From contig CAZNMJ010000003.1 in NCBI GenBank assembly GCA_964573815.1, positions 1-44,560 of the forward strand: 44,560 nt of DNA, given 5' to 3'. The notes under the pieces were generated by a model. That model ran no database searches and was not told the origin of the DNA. It worked only from the letters and a program-made list of their open reading frames with translations. Below, piece after piece: positions 25,552 through 44,560 of this stretch. Position numbers and translations under genes: made by a program. Origin of the DNA: an uncultured Anaerolineales bacterium. Lineage in GTDB: Bacteria > Chloroflexota > Anaerolineae > UBA7937 > B3-Chlor. Within the stretch, counting starts at the first letter, position 1. Each line of letters opens with the position of its first letter.

Positions 25552-25639
25552 CCGTGGGGACGGTGTGGGGCATTGTGCGTAGATGCTCGAGGCAGCGGAA
25601 GCTCGTGAGAATCACGAAGACACCCATTGGGGTCCAAAC

Positions 25640-27247: not shown

Positions 27248-27287
27248 GCGTCCGTCTCCTCACGCGGGGCTACCGCCACTGCCCAGG

Positions 27288-28054
27288 CAGAGCAATCGCA
27301 TCTAGCTGGACCGTGTGAAGAAGACCCCTGAGGAAGGGCCTTGAAGCTCCAGAAGGACCTTCAAGTGGAATTCGGGGGCTTATTGGTTGCCAGAGCTGCT
27401 CAAGCTGCTGGACGTGCAGGGCTGTGCGGTGACGATGGATGCCATGGGCTGCAAGAGAGACCTAGCGGGACAGATCAAGAAGCAAGTATGTGTCTTGCCT
27501 CAAGCGGAATCAAGAGAGCCTGGACGAAGAATCGCGCCACTTCTTCGAGGAAGCCAAGCAACGGCAATTCCGCGACCTTCCCTATCGCAATCACGAGAGC
27601 GTAGAAAAGGACTATGGCGCACTGAGACGCGCCGCGTCTGGATGGTAGAAGAGGCGGCGATCACCGGCTTCCGCGCCAGGATCAATAGCCTGGGCTGGCC
27701 AGTCTCGTGATGGTGGAGACAGAGCGACTGGTCGGCCAGAAGCAGACCAAAGGGGCGCGTTACTTCCTCTCCAGTCTCATGGAGAATGTGAAGCAAGTGG
27801 CAGCGGCCCGTGCCCGCTAGGAAATCGAGAACTCTCTGCACTTGGTGCTGGATGTAACTATGAACGAAGATCAGGGTGGGGGCGCAAAGACCATGCCCCC
27901 CGAGAACCTGGCTCTATTGCGGCGCCTTGCGTTCAACCTCATCAGGAAAACCAAATCCGCCAAGCAGAGCGTGCGCGCCAGCCTTAAGAAAACCGGGTCG
28001 AACAACTCCTTCCTGGAAGCGATTCTGGTGGCAAGATAAGATGCGATTACCCTG
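27288..28054 (+). mobile_element. Internally deleted ISAs1-family element
   Basis: IRs CAGAGCAATCGCATCTA and (rc) CAGGGTAATCGCATCTT (14/17); flanked by ACTGCCCAGG and ACTGTCCAGG (10-bp TSD, 1 mismatch). Confidence 0.85.
27387..28039 (+). pseudogene. ISAs1 transposase fragments
   Basis: PELLKLLD.QG..VTMDAMGC, EIENSLH.VLDV...ED and NLALLRRLAFNL split by frameshifts and stops. Confidence 0.88.
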
Positions 28055-28064
28055 ACTGTCCAGG

Positions 28065-28730
28065 GGACTTGCGGTCGAGAGTGGAGACGCGGCAAGGGAC
28101 AGGGCGCGACTATACGCGTGCTCAGGAACGTCGGTCCGAGGCGATATGCACCTCTCAGAGAGAACCCGCGCGGCCATACGTCGCGCACTGCTTGCAACAG
28201 CGCGACGGAGAACGTCTGTAATTCGCGGGAGATAGTGACCTCCACGTGCCGAAAAGGAACAGACTATCTGCTGATGGGGTGCTGACATTTGTAGAAACTC
28301 TCTTTCGCGCGGATTCCTTTAGATCGCGAGGAAGTGCATCTATCCAGTAGAGTTCTTGCCGTATACAGATCTGCTCCATGATTTCTTCCCTGAGCGGGAC
28401 TAGGCGCTCTGCATCAACTCCTATGCCCAGGATCTCATTGCTACGGGCCATCGCCACCCCACAGTACCCGTCCGTGTGCGTGACGCTTCCGACCACACCT
28501 GGAGGCCAGGTAGGGAAACGATCTAGCTCTATGAGCACCGACCAACGCGCGATTCCCAACTGGGACAGCGCCGCGCGGGCACAATGTCATCCTGCCATAG
28601 ACTCGTCGCGTCGCTTCGGAACCATGTTCCTGGTGCACCGTTCTTCGTCGGGGTATAGGGGTTCGAGGCGAGCCGGCCTATATAGCTCCCGCGTTACAAT
28701 TTCCGCCGGAAAAAGCTTTCGGATCGGCAA
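28065..28730 (-). pseudogene. 4'-phosphopantetheinyl transferase (EntD/Npt-like), disrupted
   Basis: KRRDE..G*.CARAAL, P.WPPGVVGSVTH and GIGVDAE; AKESFYK in a shifted frame; in-frame TGA at 28587-28589 and a further stop. Confidence 0.82.
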
Positions 28731-28993
28731 TCCTTGGGCTTCTCTTCTCATACGCTGCTCCCCACTCTGTCTGTTGGCACGCCGGCTCCTGGACCTCTTT
28801 TTCACTCGACCGCGGTCCACAGCACTCATAATACTCCATCCATTCGGCGCTGGACAAGCGCGCGGCGCGACGCCATACATGAGGTCCACGGGTCTGTTCC
28901 CAAAGCGAGTAGGGTGCGTGGCGGAACCCCCTGGCACTGGAAGGCCCGCCTTAGACGGCTTTTTCTGATCCTGGTGCACGAAAGGGGACTTCC

Positions 28994-30442
28994 ATGCGTT
29001 TAGAGACAAGCGCACTCACTTCTCACTTCGGTCGTGCCGGAGTGGCCTTAACGGACGGGAAGACCGAGCTTACCTATCTGGAGTTGCCTCAGCAGATCGA
29101 GGCAGCGATCCACTCATTCAGGCAACAGGATGTCCGGAGTCTCGCGATCTACGCAAGGAACTCCATTGCCTGGTGCATCGCCTACCTGGCATGCCTTATT
29201 GCGGACATAAAAGTCTTCCCGGTGGCACGGCAGTCCAGCAGAAAGGTCCTGCTCGACCTTTGCCAGAGATGCCGGATAAACGCCATCCTCAGCGATGAAC
29301 CACTTGGCGATATCGGCCAGGACTGCGACCTTCTCCCCGGCCTCCCGGATATGTGGTTCACCCTGCTCAATAAGCTGGAATACACCCCACAGCTTTCCGA
29401 CGTTGTCACAGTGCTCTTCACATCAGGCACCACCGGCCAACACAAAGGCGTGATGCTGACCAAGGAAAACATCACGTGTAACGCGCAATCCGTGGTGCGT
29501 TATATGGGGTACTCTCCTCGCGATTGCCTGCTCGTGGTCAAACCCCTATGTCATTCATCGACGTTGACCGCAGAGTTCTTGGCTGGGATACAGAGTGGCG
29601 CGACGTTGTACATCATGAGAGAGAAGTTCAGCGCGCCCGGTGTTATGAAGGTTCTCAACGCTTCTCCCATCTCTATCCTCTGTGGTGTACCCACGATGTT
29701 TGTCCTGCTGGTGAGGCACGCCGCGAAATACGCGGGTGCATTGCGGGCCGTGTCCATCAGCGCATCACCGGCACATAGAGAACTGCTCTTGGACATACAG
29801 GAGACGTTTCGGTGTGATGTCTATCACGTTTATGGGCTCACTGAAGCATCACCTCGAGTCGCCTATCTCGACCCGAAGCACCTCGCGGCGAAATCCGGGT
29901 CAATCGGGAAGGCTATTCCCGATGTAGAGGTATGCTTGGTAGACAAGCAAGGGAATTCCATCAATGCCCCCCATTCCGTCGGGGAGCTTGTCGTGCAGGG
30001 TCGGAACGTCATGAAGGGCTACTACGGAGATGATGGACTCACGCGAGAAGTGCTGACAAATGGGTTGCTGCACACTGGGGACTTAGCCTACATGGATGAA
30101 GAAGGATTCTTGTACCTGTGTGGGAGGAAAGACGATATGATCGCACGGGGAGGAGTGAATATCTGGCCTGAACCAATCGAGCGCGCCATCAAGCAACTCG
30201 GCTACATTGAGGATGTGGCCGTCATCGGAGTCGAGAACTACCTCTTCTCGCAGAAGATAGTCGCGCTGGTCTCGTCGAGGGTTCCCATCGAGGAGAGCGA
30301 GATCGCCAAGATATGCCAAGCAAACGACGTGGTCTGTCCGGATGCCGTCGTTCGTGTCGATGCGGTGCCAAGGAACTCCGTGGGCAAGATTGACAGGGCT
30401 CTCCTGAGAGATCGCTGGTCCCGTGCCGGAAGTCCTCCTTAG
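28994..30442 (+). CDS. AMP-forming acyl-CoA/acyl-ACP ligase
   Basis: FTSGTTGQHKG, YGLTEA, HTGDL, GRKDD and GKIDR motifs. Confidence 0.92.
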   Translation: MRLETSALTSHFGRAGVALTDGKTELTYLELPQQIEAAIHSFRQQDVRSLAIYARNSIAWCIAYLACLIADIKVFPVARQSSRKVLLDLCQRCRINAILSDEPLGDIGQDCDLLPGLPDMWFTLLNKLEYTPQLSDVVTVLFTSGTTGQHKGVMLTKENITCNAQSVVRYMGYSPRDCLLVVKPLCHSSTLTAEFLAGIQSGATLYIMREKFSAPGVMKVLNASPISILCGVPTMFVLLVRHAAKYAGALRAVSISASPAHRELLLDIQETFRCDVYHVYGLTEASPRVAYLDPKHLAAKSGSIGKAIPDVEVCLVDKQGNSINAPHSVGELVVQGRNVMKGYYGDDGLTREVLTNGLLHTGDLAYMDEEGFLYLCGRKDDMIARGGVNIWPEPIERAIKQLGYIEDVAVIGVENYLFSQKIVALVSSRVPIEESEIAKICQANDVVCPDAVVRVDAVPRNSVGKIDRALLRDRWSRAGSPP

Positions 30443-30584
30443 GGGCTGAAGAGTCTCATCCCCCGTGGTACAGAAACGGGGAGCACCACATAGGCCGTGG
30501 GATTGACATGACGCGTGGCATCACGTGTCGGGGCAGGCCCCCTTTTTCTCACATTCTTTCAGCCGCCACTATGAGGAGTTCGCC

Positions 30585-31331
30585 ATGCCATCACCTTCAC
30601 TTCAGTCGCTCACCGAGGAGTTCCGCAAGCGGTATAGTCACGACTGTCAGGTGAATCAAGGAGCCAGTCTGATCATCCTGCAGGATGACGGTCTGTACTT
30701 CTCTCTCGTCAAGACGAAGTTCTGGAAACGCGCGGAGGCCGCAGCAGACAAGACAATCATCGATTTCAGTGGCATCGGGGGAGCCATCGAACACGGCGAA
30801 ACCCCCTTCGCCTGCCTGGAAAGAGAGCTTCGGGAAGAAATCCAACTCCCTCTGAGCGCCTTTCGCTTTGCCTTTCCGAGGAAGACGCTCCTCCTCAATC
30901 CCGATGATCACCTGGAGGAGATCTCCTTCGCGGAGGATGCTGACGAACCAGCCCCCATTTACGTGCTAGAGTTGCTCCTCCCCTTGCGGAGCGACGCGAA
31001 GGATGAGGGAAAGACCCACTCGTGTCTGCAGTTGTTCGTGTACTTGGCCGAGTTGAAAGATGGACATCACCCCCTGCTCTCAGACAGAGAGGACATACCG
31101 GCCTTGTTATTCGTGCGGGCCGGGGCACTCGAGGCGCTGCTGCGGGGAGAGCTAGAGGTGTGGAACGGACAAACCCCAGACGGGTTGACCCTCTTTTGGA
31201 GGAAGGAGAAGTTCGCCCTTCCCGACCATATCGTTCTCACACCGAAGTTCACCCCGTCAGGATTAAGGGAAGCGCGGCTAAGCTTTGACATGTTGACCGA
31301 CATGCTTCGCGACACGAGCGAGAGGAGCTGA
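30585..31331 (+). CDS. NUDIX hydrolase
   Basis: Nudix box GGAIEHGETPFACLERELREEI; GAGGAG before ATG 30585. Confidence 0.8.
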   Translation: MPSPSLQSLTEEFRKRYSHDCQVNQGASLIILQDDGLYFSLVKTKFWKRAEAAADKTIIDFSGIGGAIEHGETPFACLERELREEIQLPLSAFRFAFPRKTLLLNPDDHLEEISFAEDADEPAPIYVLELLLPLRSDAKDEGKTHSCLQLFVYLAELKDGHHPLLSDREDIPALLFVRAGALEALLRGELEVWNGQTPDGLTLFWRKEKFALPDHIVLTPKFTPSGLREARLSFDMLTDMLRDTSERS

Positions 31332-31333
31332 GG

Positions 31334-32797
31334 ATGATACTCAACCGCGACAACCATACGCTGGCAAGAGAGTATCTCAAGAAGATCGTTGATACCTGCA
31401 TTGATTTCAAGTTGCAGGAATGCGTCCGTTCTGAGGTGATTGAGCAGGCCGCGGGGCAGAGCCTCCTGGAGGCAATGCCTCAAGAAGGCATGGAGTTGCG
31501 GGGTGTCCTCAAAGAGTTTGAGGAGAGGCTGCTTCGCTACTGTACGAATTTCAGTTGCCGCAATTTCATGGGGTTTCCGGATAGTGGCAACTCCGTCGCC
31601 GCGATGGCGGGAGCGATCTTCGCCGAACTGTTGCAGCAGAACCTGATCAACCAGTCCTTCTGTGGGCCCTCGGCAACCTTTGCGGAGATAGCCGTCATTC
31701 AGTGGCTCCGCGAGGTGGTTGATTATCCGGTCTCCTCCATAGATACCATCTGGGACGTCGGCGGCGTGATCACGCCTGGAGGTACGTCGAGCAATGCGAT
31801 CGCGGTCATGCTCGCGCGGGAGAACCACGCTCCGGGAACCATGGAACGCGGCCTCTGCGACCCCAGCAGGTTCAAGATCATCATGCCGACCCAGATAGGC
31901 CACTACAGCATCCGGAGTAGTCAGATGTGGCTCGGGTGCGGCGACCACATTGTGGAGGTCCCGATCGAGGGCTTCAAGATGGACCTTCATGGCCTTGCGG
32001 AAGCTCTCCAGCGGAACCAGGGGAAGACCATGATGGTGGTGGCCTACGCCGGTGACAGTCGTACCATGGCGATTGACAATCTCCCCGAAGTGCACGACCT
32101 CGTGAAGAACTTCGATGAAAACATCTGGCTGCACGCGGATGCCTGCCACGGATTCAGCCTTGGGTTCAGCACCCAGCTGAAGCACAAGATACGCGGCATC
32201 GAGCTCTTCGATAGTGTGAGCACTGATCCCCACAAAGTACTGTGCTGTCCGTACGTCGTCAGCGCCGTCTTGGTCAAGGACCCTCAGCGTCTGAGATCCA
32301 TAACCAGCAAGTCCGACCTGATCATGCGCGAGGATTTCGCATTTGGCCAAGTCACGCCTTTCCTTGGTTCTCGCAACTGGGCCTCGCTAAAACTGTGGTT
32401 TCTGATCAAGTCTCTCGGGAGACAGGGGCTGGGCGAGATTATTGAGAGGCGGCACTCCTTGGCGCAGTACTTGCACCGTGAACTAGTGTCCCTGGATCAT
32501 TACGTTGTACTGAACGAGGTCAGCATCAACTCCGTGATGTTCATGTACAGAAGACCCGGAATGCATGATCTGGACGTCACGAATACGTTGAATCGCAACC
32601 TTCACCAACGCATCATCAATGAAGGCAAGTACCACCTGCACCAATTCCCGGTAGTAGACAACAACGGCGCGCTGGAAAAGAATGCCGTTGTCTATCCGCT
32701 CAGGTTCATGTGCGGGAACCCAAATAGCACCGAGGGGGACATTGACAACCTCATTGCGTACGTTGACGCGACCGCCAAGAGCCTCGGAGGCAAATGA
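31334..32797 (+). CDS. Group II PLP-dependent decarboxylase
   Basis: GGTSSN, HYSI, WLHADACHG and DPHK motifs. Confidence 0.92.
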   Translation: MILNRDNHTLAREYLKKIVDTCIDFKLQECVRSEVIEQAAGQSLLEAMPQEGMELRGVLKEFEERLLRYCTNFSCRNFMGFPDSGNSVAAMAGAIFAELLQQNLINQSFCGPSATFAEIAVIQWLREVVDYPVSSIDTIWDVGGVITPGGTSSNAIAVMLARENHAPGTMERGLCDPSRFKIIMPTQIGHYSIRSSQMWLGCGDHIVEVPIEGFKMDLHGLAEALQRNQGKTMMVVAYAGDSRTMAIDNLPEVHDLVKNFDENIWLHADACHGFSLGFSTQLKHKIRGIELFDSVSTDPHKVLCCPYVVSAVLVKDPQRLRSITSKSDLIMREDFAFGQVTPFLGSRNWASLKLWFLIKSLGRQGLGEIIERRHSLAQYLHRELVSLDHYVVLNEVSINSVMFMYRRPGMHDLDVTNTLNRNLHQRIINEGKYHLHQFPVVDNNGALEKNAVVYPLRFMCGNPNSTEGDIDNLIAYVDATAKSLGGK

Positions 32798-34611
32798 CCG
32801 TCATGGGCACCGCAAGGAACACCATATCAGCGCTCGCCGATAGGTACGTCACTGAGATCAACCGCCACCTCGGCGGCTTCGATCCCATCGTGCTGCTCTA
32901 TGGTTCTTCCGTCGAGGGCGCAGATACGAGCGACTTTGACGTTTGTAGCGTCCTGCACCACTACGGGCCAGCAGAGGTGGACCTGATCAAGCGCCTGACG
33001 ATCGACTTTCATGTGCAGAACGGCCTCAAGATAGATGACGAAGTTCCCTTCGAGCAGAAGTGCGTTTACTCGTACCATGATATTGAGATGGTGCTGAACA
33101 TACCGCCGTTTCCAATACGCCGAGGTAAGTTCTACATACCCGACATCCAGAAGTCACCGCAGTATCTATCGTCTCGCGAGATGAAGTTTCGACTGCTCCT
33201 GAATATCCTGACCACGCATGCCAGAGTGCTAACGGGAAACGAGCGCATCATCGATGGATACAGACGTCGCGCGTGGGCCACCCTGATTGGGATCATCTAC
33301 TCCTACACCGGAAACCGGCCCATGTCGGTCCAGGAATGTGTCGCCGCCATCTGCCGAGATCCTCACGATGGACGTCACGGAGAGGAGTATCTGGGATACG
33401 ACGACACGGACCCCGATCTCTTGGCTCACCTTCATCACTGTGCGGCGGCGGCCTTTGACAGCCTCTTGGCCGAGGGAAGGATGATCCAGAATGGTCCCGA
33501 CGGATACTGCTGTGCAGATTCCTGGCTGCAAACCATGATACGCGTCGCACATTGTGCTGCCGTCCAGCAGTACGATTTTCAACTACACGAATACGAGAAG
33601 ATGAAAGGACATGACTTCTCGGAGAATGCCAATCCTCTGGGCCCGACCCAGCTTGTTCAAAGCGCCCTCCGCGCCTGCTCCGAGTACATCAATGTCTACC
33701 CGGATTACCGGAACATCGAGGCCAACGAGTGTCTGGCGACATTCTTCTCTGTCCCGGTGGAGAACGTCGCGATCGCGAACGGTTCGTTGGAGGCTATTTT
33801 CGCCCTGCCGCGGTTGCTCGATGCAAGTGCACCCAGCGTAGTCGTACCGACGTATTGGGGATACGAAGCCGCGTTGAAGGCGATGGGGGCCGAACCAGGC
33901 CGCCTCTACATTGACGACACCCTTGAGTTCAATGACGCCGCAATCGGCCGACAGGCCTCCCGGAGTTCGTTGCTCTTCCTGTGCAACCCCAACAATCCTA
34001 CCTCTTCCTATATCACTAAAGCGCGGTTGCAGCGGATCGTTCAGGAGCATCCCACCTGTCACTTCATCGTAGACGAGTCTCACCTGATGCTACACCACAA
34101 CTACTCTGAGGAAACGTTGAGCTCTCACGTGGAGGAGCTGGGGAATGTCTCGCTCGTATACTCCCTCTCGAAGCTGTTCAGCGTGGCTGGTCTACGAGTA
34201 GGTGGCCTGGTCTCCAATGCGCGTCTGATAGAAGCCTTCAAGCAATGGCAGGTGCCCTACTCGCTGAACACCATCTCTCAGGTGCTGTTCCCGCTCATTA
34301 TGAATGATGCTGACTTTGTCGCGCAGACGCGGTCGGAGATTCATGTGCTCGTGCAGGAGCTGTTCGTCAGCCTGCAGGAGTTCCGGTGGCTGAAGGTGAG
34401 GCCGAGCGTGACGAATTTCCTCTTGTGCGAAGTGACGAGAGGGATAACGGCCATGGAGTTGGCAGAGCGGCTCCGCGAACGGGGGATGTTCATCCGAGAG
34501 CTGAAGTCATGCTATCCCGACCTTGCCGGGGAGTGGGTGCGGATATCGGTAGGTACCCGGGAGCTCAACAAGTTGCTGGTCCGCGAGATCAGAGCGCTTG
34601 GGATATCGTAA
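32794..34611 (+). CDS. Nucleotidyltransferase-like domain fused to class I/II PLP aminotransferase (HisC/CobD-like)
   Basis: N-terminal LYGSS...SDFD; C-terminal ENANPLG, YPD, CNPNNPT, DES and SLSK.F...GLRVG. Confidence 0.85.
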   Translation: MTVMGTARNTISALADRYVTEINRHLGGFDPIVLLYGSSVEGADTSDFDVCSVLHHYGPAEVDLIKRLTIDFHVQNGLKIDDEVPFEQKCVYSYHDIEMVLNIPPFPIRRGKFYIPDIQKSPQYLSSREMKFRLLLNILTTHARVLTGNERIIDGYRRRAWATLIGIIYSYTGNRPMSVQECVAAICRDPHDGRHGEEYLGYDDTDPDLLAHLHHCAAAAFDSLLAEGRMIQNGPDGYCCADSWLQTMIRVAHCAAVQQYDFQLHEYEKMKGHDFSENANPLGPTQLVQSALRACSEYINVYPDYRNIEANECLATFFSVPVENVAIANGSLEAIFALPRLLDASAPSVVVPTYWGYEAALKAMGAEPGRLYIDDTLEFNDAAIGRQASRSSLLFLCNPNNPTSSYITKARLQRIVQEHPTCHFIVDESHLMLHHNYSEETLSSHVEELGNVSLVYSLSKLFSVAGLRVGGLVSNARLIEAFKQWQVPYSLNTISQVLFPLIMNDADFVAQTRSEIHVLVQELFVSLQEFRWLKVRPSVTNFLLCEVTRGITAMELAERLRERGMFIRELKSCYPDLAGEWVRISVGTRELNKLLVREIRALGIS

Positions 34612-34755
34612 GATGATGGATCTGGCCGGAGCCTCCGGCCGCGTTAGGGTGTCCCGTCACTCCCGCGTGCGCGCTGCGGCGTTGGGGGTGGTGCGTTGCT
34701 CGGCTTGCTCTTCCCGCGGGGCTGGCGATACTGATATTGGGAGGATGGCAGAGCG

Positions 34756-36057
34756 ATGAACGTACTGATGGTGTGGCCGGAGGAATCCTATACAATGCCT
34801 ATGCACACGAAGATCCCCAAGCGGTGGGCCTACTTCGTGGAGATTGCCTCCTACCTGAAACGCATGAACTATACCGTGCGAACGATAGATTGCCTCAACC
34901 CGGAGATCTCTCACGGGGAGGTGTTCGCGGCGTTATCGGGGACGAGGTACGACGTGGTGATCATGATCGCCCGGATAGAAAGCGCTCGGTCAATACGGCG
35001 ACTGGCGCCGACGATCCGGCAGCTCGCACCGGAAACGAAAGTGATCATCTATGGCGACATTTCGAACTATGCCCCGAACTTCTTCATGGTTCACGGCGTG
35101 GACGCCGTTGTCATGGACGGAGATTGGGAATGCGCCATCGTCGACTATCTCAAATACGTTGCGGGCGAGATAGAGGAAGCTGAGATGTGCGGGGTCAGCT
35201 ACCGCCGTGATGGGGTGTGGCATACGGCGCGCAAGGGACGTGAGGTGCCGAATAACGGTTGGAGTTTCCCCAACCGCACTCTAAATCCGGCCGACTCAGC
35301 ATTGTACCTGTCCATCACCGACGGCGAGTTGACCATGAGTGTCTCTCGGGGGTGTCCGTTCAACTGCCATTTCTGCCCGGCGGTTATTACGTTTCGGGAG
35401 CATGATAGAAGAAAGCATCCCGATGAGATCATCGAGTACGTTCAGCGCCACCAGCAATCGGTCGCAGCGTTCAAGTTCTTCTCCCCCACTTTCACCATTG
35501 ATGTCGATTGGGTCAAGGGCTTCTGCCACGCCTTGCTCTCTTCCGGATGTCGTATCCGATGGTCAGCCACGACCCGGCCGAACTGTCTGGGAGACGAGGA
35601 GATGGTACGACTCATGAGCGAGAGCGGTTGCTATAAGCTGGCTATAGGGGTCGAGACGCTCGACTCGGATTCGACGCGGTCCTTGGGGAAGTTCTCCGTA
35701 GCGGATCACGTTGAGCAGACGCGGGAGGCGATATTGCTGCTGAGAAGATACAACATCGAGGCCAAAGCCCTGATGATGCTCGGCATTGAGGGGCAGACGG
35801 CCACGAACATCTACCGGACGTTCTCGCTGCTCCAACAATGGGGGGCTGATATCCGAGCGGCATCTTACTCGCCCCGGGATATCCTGAAGGTTAAGGATAC
35901 AGAGGGCACCCTCGAGGTCGATGAGATAGAGCTGCTGGATAAGATGGTCTATCAGCACGTGGCGATCCCCGGGATGACTAGAACCCAGTACCTTAACTTG
36001 GTATACAATACGCACGAGTACGGGAAGATACTCAACCAGCCTCGAGAGCAACGGTAG
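34756..36057 (+). CDS. Cobalamin-binding-like radical SAM enzyme
   Basis: SRGCPFNCHFC and GVET; N-terminal Rossmann-like domain; GGAGG upstream. Confidence 0.88.
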   Translation: MNVLMVWPEESYTMPMHTKIPKRWAYFVEIASYLKRMNYTVRTIDCLNPEISHGEVFAALSGTRYDVVIMIARIESARSIRRLAPTIRQLAPETKVIIYGDISNYAPNFFMVHGVDAVVMDGDWECAIVDYLKYVAGEIEEAEMCGVSYRRDGVWHTARKGREVPNNGWSFPNRTLNPADSALYLSITDGELTMSVSRGCPFNCHFCPAVITFREHDRRKHPDEIIEYVQRHQQSVAAFKFFSPTFTIDVDWVKGFCHALLSSGCRIRWSATTRPNCLGDEEMVRLMSESGCYKLAIGVETLDSDSTRSLGKFSVADHVEQTREAILLLRRYNIEAKALMMLGIEGQTATNIYRTFSLLQQWGADIRAASYSPRDILKVKDTEGTLEVDEIELLDKMVYQHVAIPGMTRTQYLNLVYNTHEYGKILNQPREQR

Positions 36058-36106
36058 CTCTGGCGACGGCTCCCATACAGTACAGCTTCCGTTGAGGATC
36101 ATTGGG

Positions 36107-36790
36107 ATGAAACAGATAGATGTCATGCTCTGGGATATCGGCAATGTCTTGCTGCAAGGGATACATGAGGAGTTGGCCGAGTGCATCTTCAGCAAGAGGA
36201 AGAGCGACCTCTCGCGCGAGGAGTTTGGGAAGTCCTTGGCCGCCATATTGGATGAGTCGTTCTATGGCCTGGCGACCTTGGACGAGACATGGCATAGGAT
36301 GCTTGATCTGGTGAATGTCACCGATCAGCAGGAGGCGCAGGCTATCAAGTCGTCCATTGTCGTCAATAGGAACGAGGCGCTGATAGCCCACCTCCACGAC
36401 TTTCGCGCGCAGGGTTACCGGCTGGGGATTGCGTCAGACCTCAGCCAGATTGGCCTTAGTATCGTGATGGAGCGTTACCAGGATGTGCTTGGCATCTGCG
36501 AGCGCGACCTGGTGTTCATTTCTGTTTACTTGGGGCTCACCAAGGTAAGAGACGGAGCGGCCTGGTTCACGCACGTCCTTGAGGGGCTTGATGTCAAGCC
36601 GGAGAGAGTGCTGTTTATCGACGATGACCAGCGAACGATAAGTGTTGCCAAGGGCCTCGGCATAACCAGCCTGTGGTATCCTAGGGATAAGGCCGAGGAG
36701 GGTTGGTCATCGGCCAACGATCAACTGCTAGTTCGGTTGGTGGAGCTAGGAGTCGAACCGGCCCAGCTCGGAGGAGGAGCCGCGCGGTAG
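36107..36790 (+). CDS. HAD-superfamily hydrolase
   Basis: WDIGNVL motif I, K motif and LFIDD motif IV. Confidence 0.85.
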   Translation: MKQIDVMLWDIGNVLLQGIHEELAECIFSKRKSDLSREEFGKSLAAILDESFYGLATLDETWHRMLDLVNVTDQQEAQAIKSSIVVNRNEALIAHLHDFRAQGYRLGIASDLSQIGLSIVMERYQDVLGICERDLVFISVYLGLTKVRDGAAWFTHVLEGLDVKPERVLFIDDDQRTISVAKGLGITSLWYPRDKAEEGWSSANDQLLVRLVELGVEPAQLGGGAAR

Positions 36791-36895
36791 GAAGCTTCAG
36801 GGCTGGTCTCCCCGCGACTAATGTCTTCCGTACTGGTTGTGGGAGGCGGCCTCGGTTAGGCTGGTCTGCCTCCCGTTGCCTAACAAGAGACGAAC

Positions 36896-37780
36896 ATGCA
36901 AGCAAGCGTAATAATCCCGGTATACAACCAGCTGACCCAACTGATGCTCACTCTGCACGGCTTCAACGCACAGGTCGCTGACACTAGTGTCTTTGAGGTC
37001 ATCATCGCGGACGACGGTTCAGACACGGCCGTGTCCATTGACGAGCGACTCTTTGGATTCCCTTGGCGTATCGTCCGCCAGGAACATGGCGGACGGGCCG
37101 CGGCCAGAAATTTCGCCATAGCCGCGGCGCAGGGCAAGATCATAATCATGAATGATGCCGATAGGATTCCTTCTTCCCTTTTTGTCGCAGAGCATTTGAA
37201 AGCGCACACTACTCAACCTGGTGCGGTGGTAATAGGGAATCCGAGAGAGCTGTACTTCTCGGAGATAGAGAAGAAGTCGCATGCTATCGTCCAGCTGATT
37301 CGTGAAGGAAAGATTGTTAAGAAGTCAAGAGGCTATTTGTATGCGAAAAGAACTAGTAACTTGTTCGCCGCGAGTGGCAATACGACCAGCAAAATACCTT
37401 GGATCAGCTTTTTCTCTGGGAACGCTTCCGTCAGTAAGCAGACCCTGGCACTGGTAGGAGGTTTTAGCAACCTTTTCCGTACATGGGGGTGCGAACACTT
37501 TGAGCTCGGTTATCGCTTGTACCAACGCGGCTTCCCGTTCTTCCTCGCGCGCCGCGCGACGAACTGTCATCTCGCTCACGCGCGATCTCTCCAGTTCTAT
37601 AGGAAGCATTTCCAGGAGAGCATACAACTATTTTCCAAAACAACTGGCGATAGCAGGGTGCTCAGGCTATATGATTTCCTGATCGGGCGTATCTCTCTAC
37701 AACAGCTCGAGGAGATCTTCGGCGGGGGAAGGGAAGCCTTTGCGAACATACCTGACATCTTCTTCCGGTTGCCGAGATGA
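36896..37780 (+). CDS. Glycosyltransferase family 2
   Basis: SVIIPVYN, DDGS, AARN, DAD and WGCEHFELGYRL motifs. Confidence 0.92.
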   Translation: MQASVIIPVYNQLTQLMLTLHGFNAQVADTSVFEVIIADDGSDTAVSIDERLFGFPWRIVRQEHGGRAAARNFAIAAAQGKIIIMNDADRIPSSLFVAEHLKAHTTQPGAVVIGNPRELYFSEIEKKSHAIVQLIREGKIVKKSRGYLYAKRTSNLFAASGNTTSKIPWISFFSGNASVSKQTLALVGGFSNLFRTWGCEHFELGYRLYQRGFPFFLARRATNCHLAHARSLQFYRKHFQESIQLFSKTTGDSRVLRLYDFLIGRISLQQLEEIFGGGREAFANIPDIFFRLPR

Positions 37781-38002: not shown

Positions 38003-39670
38003 CTATGGCGCACCCAATCCGGCGAGTTCATCAGCGATAATAGACTTTTCCAGCTTCTTCACAAGCAACGTTGGCGTGTGAAGATCATGATCCGCCGCCA
38101 ACTCCCGATACTCCCACATGGGTCGTTCGTTGAGAAACCCCAAGGCGGTCTCTGCAGTAAATGGTAGGAATGGGAAAGACACACTGGCCATATTGAGAAT
38201 CACATCCAAGCAAATCTTCAAGCTTGTCGCTGCCCGTTCCCCGTCTTCCGATAGGGCTGCCCACGGGGCTTGCTTGTCAATGTATTTGTTCGCATCTTGC
38301 ACGACGGAAAAGATCTCTTTCAATGCCTCCCGCATCTCGCCGCGTTCCACCAGCGCACCCACTCTCTCAAACACCGATCTGCATCTCTCGGCGATGGCCC
38401 GATCTTCATGAGTATACACCCCCGGACAGGGAACCTTGGGGCCAAATCCTTTCAGGACCAACGTCAACGTTCTATTGACGAGATTACCGAAATCTCCGAG
38501 CAACTCGCCATTATTCTTCTCCAGGAACTCGTGCCACGAGAAGTCGCTATCTCTCTTCTCGGGAGCGTTCGTGATGAGGGCATAGCGGAGCGGATCTGGA
38601 TCATACTTCGCAAGGTAGTCGTTCGCCCATACCGCCCAGTTCCTGCTCGTGGAGATCTTCTTGCCCTCTATGGTGAGGTATTCACTAGACAGCACGTAGT
38701 GTGGCAAGGAGGCGAAGTCGAGTCCCATCAGCAGGCTGGGCAAGATCAGGGTATGGAAGGGGATGTTGTCCTTCCCATGGATGAAATACGATGTCGACTG
38801 AGGTCCCCAGAAATCCCTCCACAGCGACGTATCCCCTCTCTCGTTCGCCCACTCCATGCTCGCCGTCAAGTAGCCAAGTACCGCCTCGAACCACACGTAG
38901 ATCTTCTTGTCCTCGAAGCCCTTGATGGGAACATCAATACCCCAATCCAAATCCCTGGTCACCGCCCGGTCTTTCAGACCTTCCTTCAGGTATCTTCTCG
39001 TCAGGGCTACGGCATTGTCTCGCCACCGTGAGCTGCTCCTTTCGAGAAGCTCTTCCAGGGCTTCCTGGAATTGCGAGAGACCCAAGAACAGGTGCTCTGT
39101 TTCGCGTATCTCCGGCTCATGGCCACACAAGGTGCACTTCATGTTGATGAGTTTCTCTACGTCAACCAGCAGGCTGCACTCATCGCATTGATCTCCCCTG
39201 GCCGCGGTAGATCCACAGTTATAGCAAGTGCCAACAATGTAGCGGTCCGGAAGAAACCGGTTGCAGTGAACGCAGAAGGCCATCTTCACGGGCTTCGCGT
39301 AGAGCAGTCCCTTCTCGTCGAGCGTCGAGAAGAACTTCCTCACTTCCTCCTTGTGAAATGTGCACATCGTGGCCGTGTAGATGTCGTAACTGAACCCAAT
39401 GGCCTCGAATGTCTGCTTGAACTCGTCATGATAGCGCTGTGCAACGACCGCTGGAGATACCCCTTCACTCGCGGCCTTGACGGAGATAGGAGTCCCGTGA
39501 CAGTCCGATCCGGATACGTAGAGTACGTGGGCGCCCGTCATCCGGAAATATCTCGCGAGAACGTCTCCGGGCAGCAAGGCGGCAATGTGGCCCAGGTGGA
39601 GTGATCCATTGGCGTAGGGCCAGGCCCCTCCAATCAGTATGTGCTTGCCAGTGTTCTTCCGCGCTGACAT
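38003..39670 (-). CDS. metG: Methionine--tRNA ligase (two-knuckle type, no C-terminal tRNA-binding appendage)
   Basis: PYANGSLHLGH, GSDCHG, four CxxC pairs, YVWFEA, GKDNIPFH and KISTS; GGAGAGG before ATG 39670. Confidence 0.96.
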   Translation of the reverse strand: MSARKNTGKHILIGGAWPYANGSLHLGHIAALLPGDVLARYFRMTGAHVLYVSGSDCHGTPISVKAASEGVSPAVVAQRYHDEFKQTFEAIGFSYDIYTATMCTFHKEEVRKFFSTLDEKGLLYAKPVKMAFCVHCNRFLPDRYIVGTCYNCGSTAARGDQCDECSLLVDVEKLINMKCTLCGHEPEIRETEHLFLGLSQFQEALEELLERSSSRWRDNAVALTRRYLKEGLKDRAVTRDLDWGIDVPIKGFEDKKIYVWFEAVLGYLTASMEWANERGDTSLWRDFWGPQSTSYFIHGKDNIPFHTLILPSLLMGLDFASLPHYVLSSEYLTIEGKKISTSRNWAVWANDYLAKYDPDPLRYALITNAPEKRDSDFSWHEFLEKNNGELLGDFGNLVNRTLTLVLKGFGPKVPCPGVYTHEDRAIAERCRSVFERVGALVERGEMREALKEIFSVVQDANKYIDKQAPWAALSEDGERAATSLKICLDVILNMASVSFPFLPFTAETALGFLNERPMWEYRELAADHDLHTPTLLVKKLEKSIIADELAGLGAP

Positions 39671-39776
39671 CCCAGACCTCTCCAGGGAACTCCCGCTCCC
39701 AGTATCGTCGGCCACATGCGAAGCGCCAGCGCGGGTTAACGGCTGGTCGTTCGGCCGGTGCCCGTACCTCAAGCAG

Positions 39777-39805
39777 AGGATACCGTGCTTACCTGTGGGT
39801 GTCAA
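39777..39805 (-). promoter_or_regulatory. Sigma70-type promoter of metG
   Basis: TTGACA (39805-39800), 17 bp spacer, TATCCT (39782-39777). Confidence 0.6.
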
Positions 39806-39820
39806 ATGAGTATGGGACAC
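39793..39820. repeat. 28-bp putative recombination site, copy C
   Basis: CTGTGGGTGTC-AAATGA-GTATGGGACAC; overlaps the metG -35. Confidence 0.5.
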
Positions 39821-39871
39821 GCCTTTGGCCTGCAAAGCACGCCATGACCACTTAAATGGCAACGCGACAAC

Positions 39872-40004
39872 GTGTGCCTGCCAAATGGCGATGGGACACG
39901 TCTTGGAGAAGCCAGAACGCTCGGAGCGGTGCTACCGGAGGCGAGATGAGCGGCGCAGTCACACGTGTGTTTGTGGCTTCGAAACACCCGTTCTGTGCCC
40001 AATC
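39872..40004. repeat. Imperfect direct repeat copy A, beginning with the 28-bp site
   Basis: GTGTGCCTGCC-AAATGG-CGATGGGACAC; 55/70 identical to 44188-44257, with weaker similarity further on. Confidence 0.75.
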
Positions 40005-40053
40005 ACACCGGTCTGGCGCACGCCCGACAACGACCCTCTGCCCAGGGAAACTC

Positions 40054-43000
40054 CTAGTAGCGTAGCCGTCTCTCTACTGCCGACCTGGTGTCCTCCGTTC
40101 TGGCCTGTTGATCATACGTGACGGCGATGCCTTCCAGCAGATCGGCTACGTAGGGATACTCGCCCGCCAGCTTCCGCGACCAGTTTCTGTACCTCGATGC
40201 GAGCTCGCGTTCCTGTTCCCCACCTTCGCCACGCGCGTGAACGCCACGAGAGTTGTAGACGCCAATCTGCATGCCTTCTGCCATGTCGGGGGTGCCGCAT
40301 TGTTGCAGCGCTGCGCACAGTTCTACACATGGCCACGTTCCATCAGGTCCCGCAGGGGCTGCCGACAGCAGCTCACCGATCTGATGATCTCCCACTTCAG
40401 CGCGTCCGAATCTGGCACAGAGCGACTGTGCTTCTTTGATCCAAGCTACCAGTTTGCCGTCGTCGATCTTCCCCGTCTCGTCGGTACCTGGAATGCGTCT
40501 GGCGCCTCTCAGCAGATGGTAGGCTGTTCTCCCAACACTAGACTCCTGCTCTGGATCGCTCACTTTCCACTCGGGAGGGTCCTCGCCACCGTCGATCCGT
40601 CGATAGACAAGAGCAAGAGCCTGAACAAACAACGCGGGTGAGCTCGCAATCTGCTTCTGTAGATTCGGGATGCCATGCTGGGTGTGATCGAGGACTGCTA
40701 CGTAGCGGAGCTCAAGACTGGCCATTTCCTCTTCGCTCATGTTGGCGCGCCCCTGCAGGACGTCAAACGCTTCGGAGAGATAGTGTCGATCCAGTCGGTA
40801 GGCTTCAGCGCCTTCAGAATCGCAAGTGGCAATTTCCTGAAGGAGGCGCGCCAAGCGCAGAGTCTCGATCTGCTCCAGTGCATGCTGGATGGCGTGGAAG
40901 GCCGCCCGCGGCCTGCGAGCCTCCAGCAGCCGGTCAACCGCCTCGTTGAGATCAGGCGAGTCTCTCCTCAGCCATTCCGGATACACCTCGTGCCAGTACC
41001 GCTGGCTGACCTCGGGACCCGCGGAGTCGGCGAGTACCCACGTGTCGTGCTGGAAGGGAGAGGACTTGAGGAGGCGGCAGGCCAGCGACGGCGACACGAC
41101 ATCCAGCAGCTGCTGTGTGATCTGACCACGAGTGCCGTCATCCACTCCCAGGAGGAAGCCGCGCACCATCTGGTCGAATCTGCCAATTAGGCCCTTGTCC
41201 TCAATCCTCAGGCACTGCTCGAGGAAGTCGGGGGCGGCAGATCGCTCGATTAGGCTGTCCGCCATGAGGAAGCCGATCGCCATTGCTGCGCCGCTGCTCT
41301 CTAGGAGCGCTGTGATCCCCTCGAGCCCCTCTGCTTGCCAGATCTCCTTAAGAGCATCGATCCGGAGCTGCTTGATCCTCTCTTCTCGCTTCTGGAAGTC
41401 TCGTTCGCTGTCTTCTAGTTCGTCAGGAGATTCCGGAACCCACCCCTCCCCAAAAAGCCACCGGTGTCTCATTACAGGGTCTGTTGGAGTCAGAAGGGCA
41501 TACGCATGCCGAGCCCGGTCCACTGTATTGGTCTTCGGTCCGAGCCCCGTGCCCTGCCGCAAAGAAACAGAGCGCCTGATTCTATCTCTCAGGGTGGCCT
41601 TCCGGCCCTCGTCTTCTTCGTCTGTCGCCCAGCGATCTACGAGGTCCCAGATTGCCTGCTGGTCTTCCTGGGACAGCATTCGAAGACTCTCAACGAGATC
41701 ACCGAGCGTGTTCTCATCGTGTGAGGGCCAGGAAAGAGCGAGCTCGAGCGCCTTGCGATTGAACTCGAAGAACTCCGACTCTGGCACCGGATGTCCTGCT
41801 CCCGAGGCATCGCCGCGCCATCTCGGTCTGTAGTTGTATGCACCTATGCGCGGGCCGGGCTCGAGTTGCGCCAGACAGACCTGCCAGCCCGCGGCCGGGA
41901 ATCTCCGCGTCAGGGCCGCAAGGGCGCTCTTGCGCTCGTCGAGTGTCGCGGCGGTCTGCGGCATCCACGAGCGGAATATCGCCTGAAGGCTGTTCTCCGG
42001 CCTATTGCCCCAATTGTCGTCTATCTTCGTTTCTGAAAGCTGAGCAAGGACGAGAGCCACACGCTGCATCAGCTCAGGTGTCCAGGCAATGCTCTCCAGT
42101 GCCCACAGCAGCCCCGTTCGGGGACAGCCGCCGCCGAACAGGTCCGTGTCCGCAGGCTTCAGCAATCCAAGAACTTTCGGTTCATCGCTTCTCAGATCGT
42201 CCTCTATGATCTGCAGGAATTGCAGAGGCGCTGCCTCGGCATACGCGGGAAGGTCACGCGTCTGGGAAAGGAGCTTCTCAGTCGTGAGCGGCGTCAACAA
42301 GCGGCGGATCAGCGCGTCGATCTCTGCCTGAACATCGACCCCCAAACGGTTGCCGAAGAGACCGTTTCCGTGGATGCCCAGAAGGACCAGAGTTTCGCAG
42401 ACACCAGTGCGAAGTGCTCCCGAATGCTCACGGACCTTCCCATATATACCTGCAAACGCTCTCTTGTCTTCCGGAAGATCCAGAGCGGGGTCCTTCTCCG
42501 ACAAGACGAACTCCGCCGCTAGTAGGAAGTCCTCAAGGTCCTTGCGTGTGACAGCTCTCTGGACGGCAAAGAAGGCGTCGATCTTCGACACCACACCTCG
42601 AAACGTGCCAGCACACCAGACAGGCGGGTCATCGAAGTTTACGAGCTCTGTGATCTCCTGTTCGACCTTGTCATACGGCCTATCTGTAAGTAGGGACATG
42701 ACTCCACGGTCGCCTTCCGACTGCGCGTGCCACGCCCCAACGAACATCATCGGGACCAGACTTCGAACAGCACGAGCATCCTTCGCCCACTCGGGATTCT
42801 GGATCGCGGGGATCTTCGAGAGCAGACGACGCAAGATCGTCGGCGAGTGACCCGACTGCCGCGCCAGGTCATCGGCTCTAAGATGGTCATCGATGCCCAT
42901 GGCTGCGAGTGCCACCCTGAACGGTTCATGCCCAAGGAGATCAAGTACAACCGATGGTTCGGGATCGACTGTGTTCCTGGGACGGATCACTATCGTGTGT

Positions 43001-44127
43001 GTGCTCTTCACGATCCGCGCAAGTTCTCGTTCAGCTTCGTCAGTGAACACAATCGGGACAAAGGATGAGGAAGTGGTCGCCAGTTTGCGGAGCATCTTCG
43101 CTTCAGAGAAGACAAGGGCCCTGTCCTTGAGCATTCCGAACGTCTGGTCATCGCTCTCAAACAGGCAATACAGGAAAGCCAGCGCTTCGAGTTTCGAATC
43201 GCCGCATACTATGAGAGGGGAAGAGGGACTCCTTTCCAGCCACTCCTTCACCTCGCCCTTGTAGCGCTCCACCGACGGAGTGAACAGTTCCCTCGGCAGT
43301 TCGGGTGTGGTAGCTGCCGACCACTCCTGCCATAGGTCTTCCAGAGACCGCACACCGTCGGCTGGGTGGCCCATCCTCTCCGCTAACCATCCTTGTGCTT
43401 GTATGGACTGCTCAAGCCATTGTTCGAGATCGCTCGCGTCGTACACCCTCACCGACTTCCATTCCCCTCGTGCCTCGTTGTCCTGTGCCCACTGTCCTTT
43501 TCCGCTCCAGCTTCTTGGGGTCACAAAGACGAAATCCATCGCCAGCCGATCACTTTCAGGAATGGCTCCGACTCGCGCCTTGTAGTCTGAATTGGCCTTC
43601 TGCCTTGGATCCTCACTACATCCGAACTCCCAACGAGACTTGCCCAGCGGAATCCATGGCGTTGCCACACCCGCATCGACGCGGCCATCCCACCCTTTCC
43701 TCTCGGCATTGCCATAGCCGGGGAAGTCAACAAGGGAGAGTTCCTGACCGGTCGAGTTGACTAGCCTTCTCAGAAGAACAGCAAGGTGCGATCGCGCCTC
43801 CAGGTTGCCCTCGGTCCATTGCTCAATGTCCCGTGCCGTGATCTTCAGGAATGGTGGCACATAGGCCCCGACCGCGAGGTTGGGAGCGTGCGCCCGCTGC
43901 TGGTGTTGTTCGAACTCTGCCTGCCGTTCAAGGAGGTCTTTCTGACTGACCCCAAAGGCCTTCTCAAGCCGGGCGGCCATCCTCGCAGAAAGGCCCGCTT
44001 TGCCGTTAAGGAGGTTCGAGAGTGCTGGCCGTCCTACGCCAAGGAGTCTGGCGGCCTCTGTGACTGACATCTCAGGGGGGATGACATTACTGCGAATGTA
44101 CAAGCCCGGGTGGACTCGTCTCTCCAT
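40054..44127 (-). CDS. HigA-type HTH fused to a putative PD-(D/E)XK nuclease-like domain, degenerate NTPase-like region and long helical C-terminus
   Basis: HPG...SVTEAARLLGVGRPALSNLLNGK...MAARLEKAFG; GWDG...WEFG...KANSDY..R...FVFVTPR; AAGGAG RBS. Confidence 0.8.
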   Translation of the reverse strand: MERRVHPGLYIRSNVIPPEMSVTEAARLLGVGRPALSNLLNGKAGLSARMAARLEKAFGVSQKDLLERQAEFEQHQQRAHAPNLAVGAYVPPFLKITARDIEQWTEGNLEARSHLAVLLRRLVNSTGQELSLVDFPGYGNAERKGWDGRVDAGVATPWIPLGKSRWEFGCSEDPRQKANSDYKARVGAIPESDRLAMDFVFVTPRSWSGKGQWAQDNEARGEWKSVRVYDASDLEQWLEQSIQAQGWLAERMGHPADGVRSLEDLWQEWSAATTPELPRELFTPSVERYKGEVKEWLERSPSSPLIVCGDSKLEALAFLYCLFESDDQTFGMLKDRALVFSEAKMLRKLATTSSSFVPIVFTDEAERELARIVKSTHTIVIRPRNTVDPEPSVVLDLLGHEPFRVALAAMGIDDHLRADDLARQSGHSPTILRRLLSKIPAIQNPEWAKDARAVRSLVPMMFVGAWHAQSEGDRGVMSLLTDRPYDKVEQEITELVNFDDPPVWCAGTFRGVVSKIDAFFAVQRAVTRKDLEDFLLAAEFVLSEKDPALDLPEDKRAFAGIYGKVREHSGALRTGVCETLVLLGIHGNGLFGNRLGVDVQAEIDALIRRLLTPLTTEKLLSQTRDLPAYAEAAPLQFLQIIEDDLRSDEPKVLGLLKPADTDLFGGGCPRTGLLWALESIAWTPELMQRVALVLAQLSETKIDDNWGNRPENSLQAIFRSWMPQTAATLDERKSALAALTRRFPAAGWQVCLAQLEPGPRIGAYNYRPRWRGDASGAGHPVPESEFFEFNRKALELALSWPSHDENTLGDLVESLRMLSQEDQQAIWDLVDRWATDEEDEGRKATLRDRIRRSVSLRQGTGLGPKTNTVDRARHAYALLTPTDPVMRHRWLFGEGWVPESPDELEDSERDFQKREERIKQLRIDALKEIWQAEGLEGITALLESSGAAMAIGFLMADSLIERSAAPDFLEQCLRIEDKGLIGRFDQMVRGFLLGVDDGTRGQITQQLLDVVSPSLACRLLKSSPFQHDTWVLADSAGPEVSQRYWHEVYPEWLRRDSPDLNEAVDRLLEARRPRAAFHAIQHALEQIETLRLARLLQEIATCDSEGAEAYRLDRHYLSEAFDVLQGRANMSEEEMASLELRYVAVLDHTQHGIPNLQKQIASSPALFVQALALVYRRIDGGEDPPEWKVSDPEQESSVGRTAYHLLRGARRIPGTDETGKIDDGKLVAWIKEAQSLCARFGRAEVGDHQIGELLSAAPAGPDGTWPCVELCAALQQCGTPDMAEGMQIGVYNSRGVHARGEGGEQERELASRYRNWSRKLAGEYPYVADLLEGIAVTYDQQARTEDTRSAVERRLRY

Positions 44128-44141
44128 TTGTGTTCTCCTTT

Positions 44142-44180
44142 TGTAGCGTGTATCGTAACACGCTACATAAACCGTGTCAA
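44142..44180 (-). promoter_or_regulatory. Promoter with operator palindrome straddling the -10
   Basis: TTGACA (44180-44175), 17 bp spacer, TACGAT (44157-44152); perfect IR TGTAGCGTGT/ACACGCTACA (44142-44151, 44158-44167). Confidence 0.75.
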
Positions 44181-44187
44181 GGCCCTT

Positions 44188-44318
44188 GTGTCCCTGTCAC
44201 ATGCCGATGGGACACGTCCGGTAGAAGCCAGAACGCCGCGAGTAGTGGTGCCGAAGGGCGCAGCGCGAAACAACACACAGCTGCTTGTGGACTGAAGGCC
44301 CTTCTTCTGGGCTCAGTC
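44188..44318. repeat. Imperfect direct repeat copy B, beginning with the 28-bp site, adjoining the integrase stop
   Basis: GTGTCCCTGTC-ACATGC-CGATGGGACAC with GTGTCCC/GGGACAC inverted ends. Confidence 0.75.
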
Positions 44319-44560
44319 CGCGCGCTCGACCATTGCGCCTAGCAGACCACGAAGCTTCCCGACTGCTGTCTGCTTCGTCCTCGTATCCGAGTGCAGGTAC
44401 TTGGCGGTGGTCTCCAGGTCGGCGTGTCCGAGCAGCTCCTGCACGGTTCTGACATCGACACCGTTGCGGATCAGGTGGGTGGCGAAGGTGTGCCGGAGTT
44501 TATGCGGGGTGATGCCCTGGCCTTCGAGCCCAGCCTTGCGGACGGTGCCGGCCAGCATCG
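44313..44560 (-). CDS. Tyrosine recombinase/integrase (XerC/D-like), 3' part only
   Basis: [13 protein letters not shown]...[18 protein letters not shown] catalytic HxxR, H and Y; runs off the window. Confidence 0.92.

Follow-up and report, generated by a model that had tools for sequence, protein, structure and literature searches.

Three related 28-nt sequences, here named C, A and B, lie in the same orientation at the right end of a 44,560-nt contig of an uncultured Anaerolineales bacterium from the Chloroflexota (contig CAZNMJ010000003.1 of GenBank assembly GCA_964573815.1; this whole stretch of DNA is called the window below). A and B bracket a gene for a 1357-amino-acid protein, and B adjoins the truncated gene of a Xer-like tyrosine recombinase. 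We propose, with a probability of roughly 0.5, that related transposable elements, or what remains of them, lie stacked here with C, A and B as their left ends, and that the last of them leads into the recombinase gene. The proposal draws on a profile built from 26 foreign copies in Armatimonadota only, with the window copies left out, which finds A (E = 8.3e-12), B (E = 6.8e-09) and C (E = 9.1e-07) and nothing else significant on either strand of the window. These three are also the only clear matches to the profile in this genome. As the alignments of the foreign copies show, the repeat is the terminal inverted repeat of a family of insertion sequences (IS) with an rve transposase, and of shortened, transposase-less derivatives resembling miniature inverted-repeat transposable elements (MITEs).

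Three direct repeats at the right end of the contig

The window is the entire contig C3 of a metagenome bin of 374 contigs (88.9% complete, 2.0% contamination; genome 3.57 Mb). Its right end reads metG, site C, site A, the 1357-amino-acid open reading frame (ORF), site B and the 3' part of the recombinase gene, with all three genes on the minus strand. In A and B the terminal repeat is joined to its own subterminal part of ~100 nt, which differs after the first ~45 nt, a form that we call type 2; this class was assigned by eye, and the type-2 profile whose E-values stand below was trained partly on sequences that it matches, the window copies included. The features are as follows.

38003..39670, minus strand: metG, a second, divergent copy that borders the array (Pfam tRNA-synt_1g, 6.8e-139)
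39777..39805, minus strand: promoter-like site facing metG, TTGACA-17-TATCCT (10/12), its -35 (39800-39805) within site C and its -10 in the flank
39793..39820, plus strand: site C, a solo terminal repeat and the outermost copy, beside metG (window-free family profile at 39791-39824, E = 9.1e-07)
39866..40009, plus strand: unit A, site A (39872-39899) with ~100 nt of type-2 subterminal sequence (type-2 nhmmer E = 1.7e-30; family profile at 39862-39918, E = 8.3e-12)
40054..44127, minus strand: cargo gene, 1357 amino acids, an N-terminal HigA-like helix-turn-helix (HTH) domain and a long part that matches no family (Pfam HTH_3, 4.6e-08; TIGR02607, 47.8 bits)
44152..44180, minus strand: promoter-like site of the cargo gene, TTGACA-17-TACGAT (10/12); with the palindrome, 44143..44180
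44181..44323, plus strand: unit B, site B (44188-44215) with type-2 subterminal sequence (type-2 nhmmer E = 2e-24; family profile at 44184-44234, E = 6.8e-09)
44313..44560, minus strand: Xer-like tyrosine recombinase, the last 81 codons and the stop (44313-44315), truncated by the contig end (PF00589, 1.5e-20)

The three 28-mers, beginning at 39793, 39872 and 44188, all stand on the plus strand exactly as the first-pass annotation had written them. A and B agree at 24/28 positions, C and A at 21/28, and C and B at 20/28, and a search of both strands of the 3.57-Mb genome for matches of at least 21/28 to A returned these three places alone; the regular expression given in that annotation likewise has three matches genome-wide, all at this array. 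No inverted copy of the site was found in the window, where all three copies are direct. The imperfect A/B repeat of ~130 bp described at the same time is upheld, with a length of ~140 nt: its first 70 nt are identical at 55/70 positions, with a local alignment score of 68 against 20.4 ± 2.5 (maximum 32) in 200 shuffles. The further stretch with 28/45 identities is not significant alone, its score being attained in 83/500 shuffles, yet this continuation is real despite its weak score, because a further genome has a third copy (G514:C78), which can be aligned over ~125-130 nt with A (39871-39996) as well as with B (44181-44309). The boundaries of the A/B similarity are sharp at the site, and the longest identical run is 14 nt, CGATGGGACACGTC. 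At C the repeat itself is conserved and the type-2 subterminal part is not (type-2 profile positions 9-42, E = 0.034).

The layout first reported for the array also stands. The 4316 nt from A to B contain a single ORF (40054-44127, minus strand) and a single promoter-like site (44152-44180), the 79 nt from C to A are gene-free, and the B repeat does run into the stop of the recombinase gene, since the B unit extends to 44323 and therefore overlaps the codon at 44313-44315. The parse of each site as 11-6-11 is an interpretation and not an observation, because the outer 7 nt alone form inverted repeats (B 7/7, A 5/7, C 3/7) and the inner 4 nt are not inverted; the outer arms of A are inverted at 8/9 positions when read two bases further out. 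The central hexamers of C, A and B differ, being AAATGA, AAATGG and ACATGC, respectively.

The repeat as an insertion-sequence end

The first clue to the family came from 31 Armatimonadota loci with homologues of the recombinase, which contained two matches of 18/21 and 17/21 specified bases; the estimated chance expectation for such matches in 112 kb is ~0.002 and ~0.03, respectively. With at most 3 mismatches, the 21-base consensus has 26 matches in five Armatimonadota genomes (3-8 copies per genome) versus 0 for a reversed-pattern control, and with at most 2 mismatches 12 genomes of a 401-genome Armatimonadota sample are positive, against 1 for the control. The motif was found in none of 400 sampled genomes of the window's own phylum (at most 1 mismatch) and in none of 40 relatives of the bin (at most 2 mismatches). 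The repeat family is common in one lineage of Armatimonadota.

When aligned and oriented, the copies share a consensus of ~30 nt, TGTSSSTGTCAAATGGCGATGGGACACC.C. Pairs of copies become similar from the TGT onward (the start lies at relative positions -13 to +6, and at -37 in one pair), and the similarity runs inward, usually for 105-110 nt, for several hundred in some pairs and for 1528 nt in the pair L345/L349. Most copies in the five genomes are the outer ends of short elements. Ten of them have an inverted partner 196-1521 nt away, the two terminal repeats being identical at 19-23/34 positions, and the longest two elements, at 1519 and 1521 nt, code for proteins with an rve domain (9.8e-16) that are 422 and 426 amino acids long. 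The 422-amino-acid protein additionally matches HTH_32; its best NCBIfam models are those of the IS3 and IS481 transposases, and it lies below both cut-offs, so that the placement of the transposase family, for which this one protein was used, is approximate. The transposase has 3-12 matches in each of the five genomes, and its more diverged subfamilies carry more diverged TGT...GTC...GAC inverted ends. Because inverted pairs, the TGT boundary and full-length elements encoding rve occur together in this family, the site is an IS3/IS481-like terminal repeat and not a dif, attC or pdif site. The sites in the window are non-random and belong to mobile DNA.

Several properties of the family are those of IS3/IS481-type insertion sequences and their MITE-like derivatives: the ends start with TG and form terminal inverted repeats that are imperfect and ~30 nt long, the only gene is that of an rve/DDE transposase and starts ~110 nt inside the left end, there are many copies per genome including short derivatives without transposase, and the end carries an outward -35. 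An outward -35 or an outward promoter is a classical property of IS ends. In contrast to such elements, the complete copies of the family show no target duplications and their transposase falls below the IS3 and IS481 cut-offs, and the window copies have neither an inverted partner nor a transposase, differ in their subterminal sequence and stand all in one orientation.

Besides the three sites, a weak fourth match to the family profile was seen in the bin (G000 contig C69, 3881-3903, E = 0.011), covering the left and central part of the site only. One candidate pattern around the copies was tried and rejected. The 13-15 nt left of each copy seemed to resemble the inner half of the repeat, which would have pointed to a preferred target or to incomplete copies in tandem, among them a 'C-prime' at 39842-39871 and one to the left of B. 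The mean score was -11.2 versus -11.8 in the control, with 2/26 copies above the 95th percentile of the control.

Proposed stacking of transposon ends and the points against it

Type 2 accounts for 6/26 foreign copies as classified by eye, and two of them, G514:C78 and G514:C4, share the full ~130-nt unit with A and B. None of the six has an inverted partner within 1.5 kb on either side, no rve gene adjoins them, and their inner genes differ between copies. According to the reading that we prefer, three related elements or remnants would have landed inside or beside one another upstream of the accessory metG. C would be a bare remnant, whose TGTCAA, read on the other strand, may now serve as the -35 box facing metG. 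A would be the end of an element with the gene of the 1357-amino-acid HTH-fused protein as its first inner gene, and B the end of an element with the Xer-like recombinase as its first inner gene, the remainder of which would lie past the contig end. A transposase encoded elsewhere would bind and cut the ends in trans. A and B, being left ends that point the same way, do not delimit a unit able to transpose by itself. The comparisons above establish that the sites are homologous to terminal repeats of IS, that the TGT boundary is sharp, that a type-2 unit is shared and which genes are present; the order of insertion, the acting enzyme and any present activity are inferred.

A number of observations weigh against this reading. 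The type-2 unit was never seen within a complete transposon, and in further DNA of up to 19 kb, analysed for five type-2 copies, no inverted partner appeared. Site-specific integration predicts what is seen here, three ends within 4.4 kb that all point the same way; from nested transposition this pattern would be expected only one time in four. Homologous recombination cannot have made the arrangement, given how far A and B have diverged (longest run 14 nt), and if A and B arose by recombination at all, it was of a site-specific kind. The window and G514:C78, from two independent genomes, both have the type-2 unit past the 3' end of a recombinase gene of the same clade, at a distance of 0.1-0.95 kb and in the same relative orientation. 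The 12-nt flanks of the ten inverted pairs showed no target-site duplication; the copies may be old, or their true ends may lie a few bases further out. Finally, neither an inverted partner nor an rve transposase homologue was found on the contig or in the bin (88.9% complete), and the absence of a partner end is not decisive because the contig stops 245 nt past the last base of unit B (44323), inside the recombinase gene.

The adjacent recombinase and a possible alternative role of the sites

The recombinase fragment is 85-96% identical over its 81 residues to a tight clade of two-domain enzymes of 310-330 amino acids, whose members are frequently located on short contigs. The fragment scores below every NCBIfam Xer and integron cut-off. 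Full-length clade members reach 220-244 bits on XerC (cut-off 335), and on the integron integrase model TIGR02249 (cut-off 265) the fragment has 66.5 bits and its full-length relatives 99-133 bits. By these scores the enzyme is Xer-like, yet neither an Xer equivalog nor an integron integrase. Its best match in the 40 relatives of the bin is only 62%, so that it is no housekeeping orthologue here; the Xer-like genes that those relatives conserve are two others.

The remainder of the gene was not found elsewhere in the bin, and the last 21-127 nt of the contig are unique in the bin. Contigs from the one run that contains this DNA, probably the source, include a second recombinase sequence over 44421-44538 (118 nt) with 10 differences, at a depth of 39 versus 44. 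This probably explains why the assembly breaks there. The sample therefore contains another recombinase gene closely related to this one, possibly within one genome. In Armatimonadota genomes the clade is multi-copy, with some copies arranged as tandem pairs. Such same-strand pairs occur in G566:C1 (2841558-2843410, 2959730-2961579 and 3032164-3034016) and in G441:C290, several per genome and some copies with in-frame stops, and they look like a separate mobile element with two tyrosine recombinases. Both in the window and at another locus (L365, G661:C1 ~1363-1367 kb), a clade recombinase stands next to an aminoacyl-tRNA synthetase gene, metG and leuS, respectively, which may be a coincidence. 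An 84% homologue on an IMG/VR contig (L199) is accompanied by a ParB-like gene, an HTH gene and a DDE_Tnp_1 transposase, a context that is plasmid-like or mobile and not clearly phage.

The sites could instead be attachment or cassette sites of this adjacent recombinase, with the A-B segment as a recombinase-less, cis-mobilizable-like module integrated in tandem. Recombination between A and B could then excise a circle of 4316 nt, and the elements of the recombinase would use IS-end sequences or descend from them. We regard this as a tentative possibility, well short of probable. It would account for the direct orientation of all copies with boundaries sharp at the site, for the position of the recombinase 3' end ~100 nt from B, and for the compact order of site, gene, promoter and site. 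The outer inverted arms of B (7/7) and of A (8/9 in the wider reading) are in agreement with it, the 14 identical bases CGATGGGACACGTC might be a crossover core, and the divergence of A and B, which leaves no room for homologous recombination, speaks for it too. Moreover, the arrangement of unit and recombinase recurs in G514:C78, where a type-2 unit lies 950 nt past the 3' end of a clade recombinase in the same relative orientation with a 213-amino-acid ORF in between. The motif is present in 8/11 genomes with a strong recombinase match versus 4/390 others, five recombinase candidates having been scored per genome and the genomes being kin.

Against this role stands that in other genomes the homologous sequence has been shown to be the terminal inverted repeat of an IS, and 25/26 foreign copies in the five genomes have no clade recombinase within 1.5 kb. 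With the type-2 profile, the unit was detected at 1/31 Armatimonadota recombinase loci, that one being a training sequence, and at 0/80 genome recombinase loci, 0/80 viral-contig loci and 0/80 metG control loci. It is absent downstream of the six closest aligned relatives of the recombinase. The closest relative with full context (G661, 92%) stands beside leuS with no unit close to its end, its nearest candidate being a 16/21 match 4.3 kb off inside another gene, and the second of the two initial matches, at L316, is simply the right end of a complete IS that adjoins a recombinase gene. The type-2 unit is no general neighbour of the recombinase clade. Hence the expected enrichment of the motif near recombinase homologues is seen among genomes (8/11 versus 4/390) and is mostly missing among loci (1/31 close, 0/160 more distant). 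Kinship of the genomes, together with the presence of the transposase in 5/5 genomes tested, means that the co-occurrence may be shared descent. The unlike central 6 nt of the three sites also argue against this role, and so do the homologues of the cargo gene, which have neither such sites nor a tyrosine recombinase nearby. No att-like repeats were found around the closest recombinase homologues (L005-L008, L199 and L200); a 59-nt repeat in L005 turned out to be a pair of paralogous membrane-protein genes. Assembled contigs of the probable source run and of one same-study run contained no recombination product, though contigs cannot show rare junctions.

The closest described parallel to such a module is the tandem accretion of elements. 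PMC5704250 describes streptococcal arrays of integrative and conjugative or integrative and mobilizable elements (ICE/IME), in which a cis-mobilizable element (CIME) takes part in tandem accretion and arrays of decayed elements flanked by att sites are the outcome. Similar to a CIME as described there, the integrase-less segment of the window lies between direct related sites beside an element bearing a tyrosine recombinase. It differs in that the window offers no tRNA or gene 3' end as a target, the sites are homologous to IS ends, and the enzyme is a small, two-domain, Xer-like one with a putative action on the sites. The CIME geometry fits the window; for the recombinase as its cognate enzyme there is one other locus (G514:C78), and against it there are 30/31 close loci. 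The earlier suggestion of a tandem accretion of related islands comes near to the stacking of related elements that we prefer.

The cargo gene

Beyond the HTH domain, ~1260 residues of the cargo protein match no Pfam, NCBIfam or PADLOC family. The family is nevertheless large and constant in length, with 2222 homologues at E<=1e-10 among 7999 candidates scored. In two genomes of the same genus (G341/G075), the DNA is 81% identical across 4258 nt, comprising the cargo gene and short flanks, in unrelated surroundings. The cargo gene thus moves independently, as a module of ~4.25 kb with no other gene. At the homologue loci examined no repeat sites were found, and there is no tyrosine recombinase within 100 kb of the cargo gene in four genomes. 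Two loci deserve mention for repeats of other kinds: in G111 the gene lies between 41-nt direct repeats (80%) 4248 nt apart, and in a Chloroflexota genome (L297) between direct repeats of ~480 nt (90%) that duplicate a region with a GNAT gene. A 9-6-9 palindrome at 44143-44166 covers the -10 of the cargo promoter-like site, a similar one was recognised by eye upstream of a 55% homologue (L196), and this palindrome, not the 28-nt repeat, is likely to be the operator of the cargo gene.

Less probable readings and known site systems

It is conceivable, if unlikely, that the array is a chromosomal cassette platform that is neither integron nor pdif, on which the Xer-like recombinase would capture single-gene, self-promoted modules at 28-nt sites shared with or borrowed from the terminal repeats of a DDE insertion sequence. 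One DNA motif would then serve two unrelated recombination machineries, and the captured module would be the defence-like 1357-amino-acid HTH-fused protein. The integron- or pdif-like cassette system with its own recombinase that was proposed at first is not supported, in view of sites that are IS ends, an integrase below the cut-off and a single cargo with its own promoter. The accompanying remark that the sites are neither attC nor canonical dif proved right: they show no attC-like fold, are not single-copy and are not conserved in relatives.

Tn402 and class 1 integrons have a transposase of the rve superfamily and a terminal repeat starting with TGT, placed shortly past the 3' end of the gene for a Xer-related tyrosine recombinase. 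Compared with this layout, the window is similar in its TGT-initiated terminal repeat just beyond the recombinase 3' end and in the rve transposase of the family. The recombinase of the window is, on the other hand, no integron integrase, no attI/attC array was seen, and there are no tni-type genes on the contig. Again unlike an integron, the window has a single cargo that brings its own promoter-like site, the integrase gene has its 3' end towards the sites, and there is no attC-like hairpin. The pdif modules of Acinetobacter plasmids have sites that alternate in orientation. With these and with integrative mobile elements exploiting Xer at dif (dif-IMEX), the window shares 28-nt sites that bracket a small gene module near an enzyme of the Xer family. 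It is distinguished by sites that are multi-copy, not conserved in relatives and without palindromic inner arms, and from pdif modules by the direct orientation of all three sites. A 16-nt core gave 15 matches in viral contigs, none of which extended (at most 21/28, of which 13 were fixed), and they were rejected as chance; a site-plus-flank pattern of 30 positions, 26 of them specified, had 0 matches in genome contigs.

That the repeats are regulatory or structural DNA of the neighbouring genes (operators, terminators or a small RNA) unrelated to mobility seems very improbable to us. Every site does lie upstream of a gene on the minus strand, a promoter-like -35 overlaps site C, and the cargo protein has an HTH domain. 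Set against this, there is no Rfam match for the repeats even at E<=1, folding the DNA of C, A and B on both strands gives z-scores between -1.02 and +0.56, none of them significant, the site is absent at homologues of the cargo gene, whose likely operator is the different palindrome at 44143-44166, and the family acts as the ends of mobile elements elsewhere. Nearly excluded is the view that the sites are the chromosomal dif of a single-recombinase Xer system with the A-B segment as an IMEX, comparable with Legionella XerL and LME-1: the Xer-like recombinase, a cumulative GC skew peaking at ~37-38 kb, ~2 kb left of C, and the directly repeated dif-like sites left by dif-integrated elements (PMC9765430) would fit, but the motif is missing from the 40 relatives (at most 2 mismatches) and the 400 sampled genomes of the phylum (at most 1 mismatch), those relatives lack a close recombinase orthologue (best 62%) and keep two other Xer-like genes, there are 3-8 motif copies per genome versus a single-copy dif, and the skew change matches a switch of gene strand and spans only 6.5 kb.

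Other features of the window

Over positions 1-44560, the cumulative GC skew climbs to ~37-38 kb and then drops. As this turn coincides with the switch of the genes from the plus to the minus strand, it is indistinguishable from a gene-strand effect on a 44-kb contig. Only two promoter-like sites, those listed above, occur in 39600-44560, and shuffled sequence has a mean of 0.9. The G+C content is 56-62% in the A-B segment, 51-60% in the neighbouring DNA and 59% in the genome, and this comparison gave no clear signature of foreign composition for the A-B segment. No tRNA that could be a target was found in the window. An IS21-type pair (IstB-like ATPase and rve/Mu-type transposase) at 5383-7453 on the minus strand is unrelated to the repeat family studied here.

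The other metG copy of the bin is on contig C231. The copy in the window shares 46-47% identity with metG from genomes of its genus and its family, and its best named relatives are from Bacillota (53-54%). Since it is a divergent second copy, synteny is unusable for finding an empty site, and 39600-40100 has no DNA match among the 40 relatives. metG ends a run of biosynthesis-type genes (22267-37780) for radical SAM/B12, AMP-binding, PLP decarboxylase, aminotransferase and glycosyltransferase proteins, and might serve in self-resistance against a product whose target is MetRS.

Implications

If C, A and B are indeed stacked ends, they would be ordinary decayed, nested transposon ends at a contig edge, one of which probably donates a -35 to the neighbouring gene. 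They also give reason for caution, as a motif that in isolation resembles the core site of a recombinase turned out to be an IS terminal repeat once its relatives were found. Furthermore, the comparison delimits an uncharacterised family of elements in an uncultivated lineage by its terminal repeat, its type-2 unit, its transposase and a multi-copy clade of Xer-like recombinases. And if the sites belonged to the recombinase after all, a tyrosine recombinase and a DDE transposase would share one family of sites, which would be an unusual link between two kinds of mobility.

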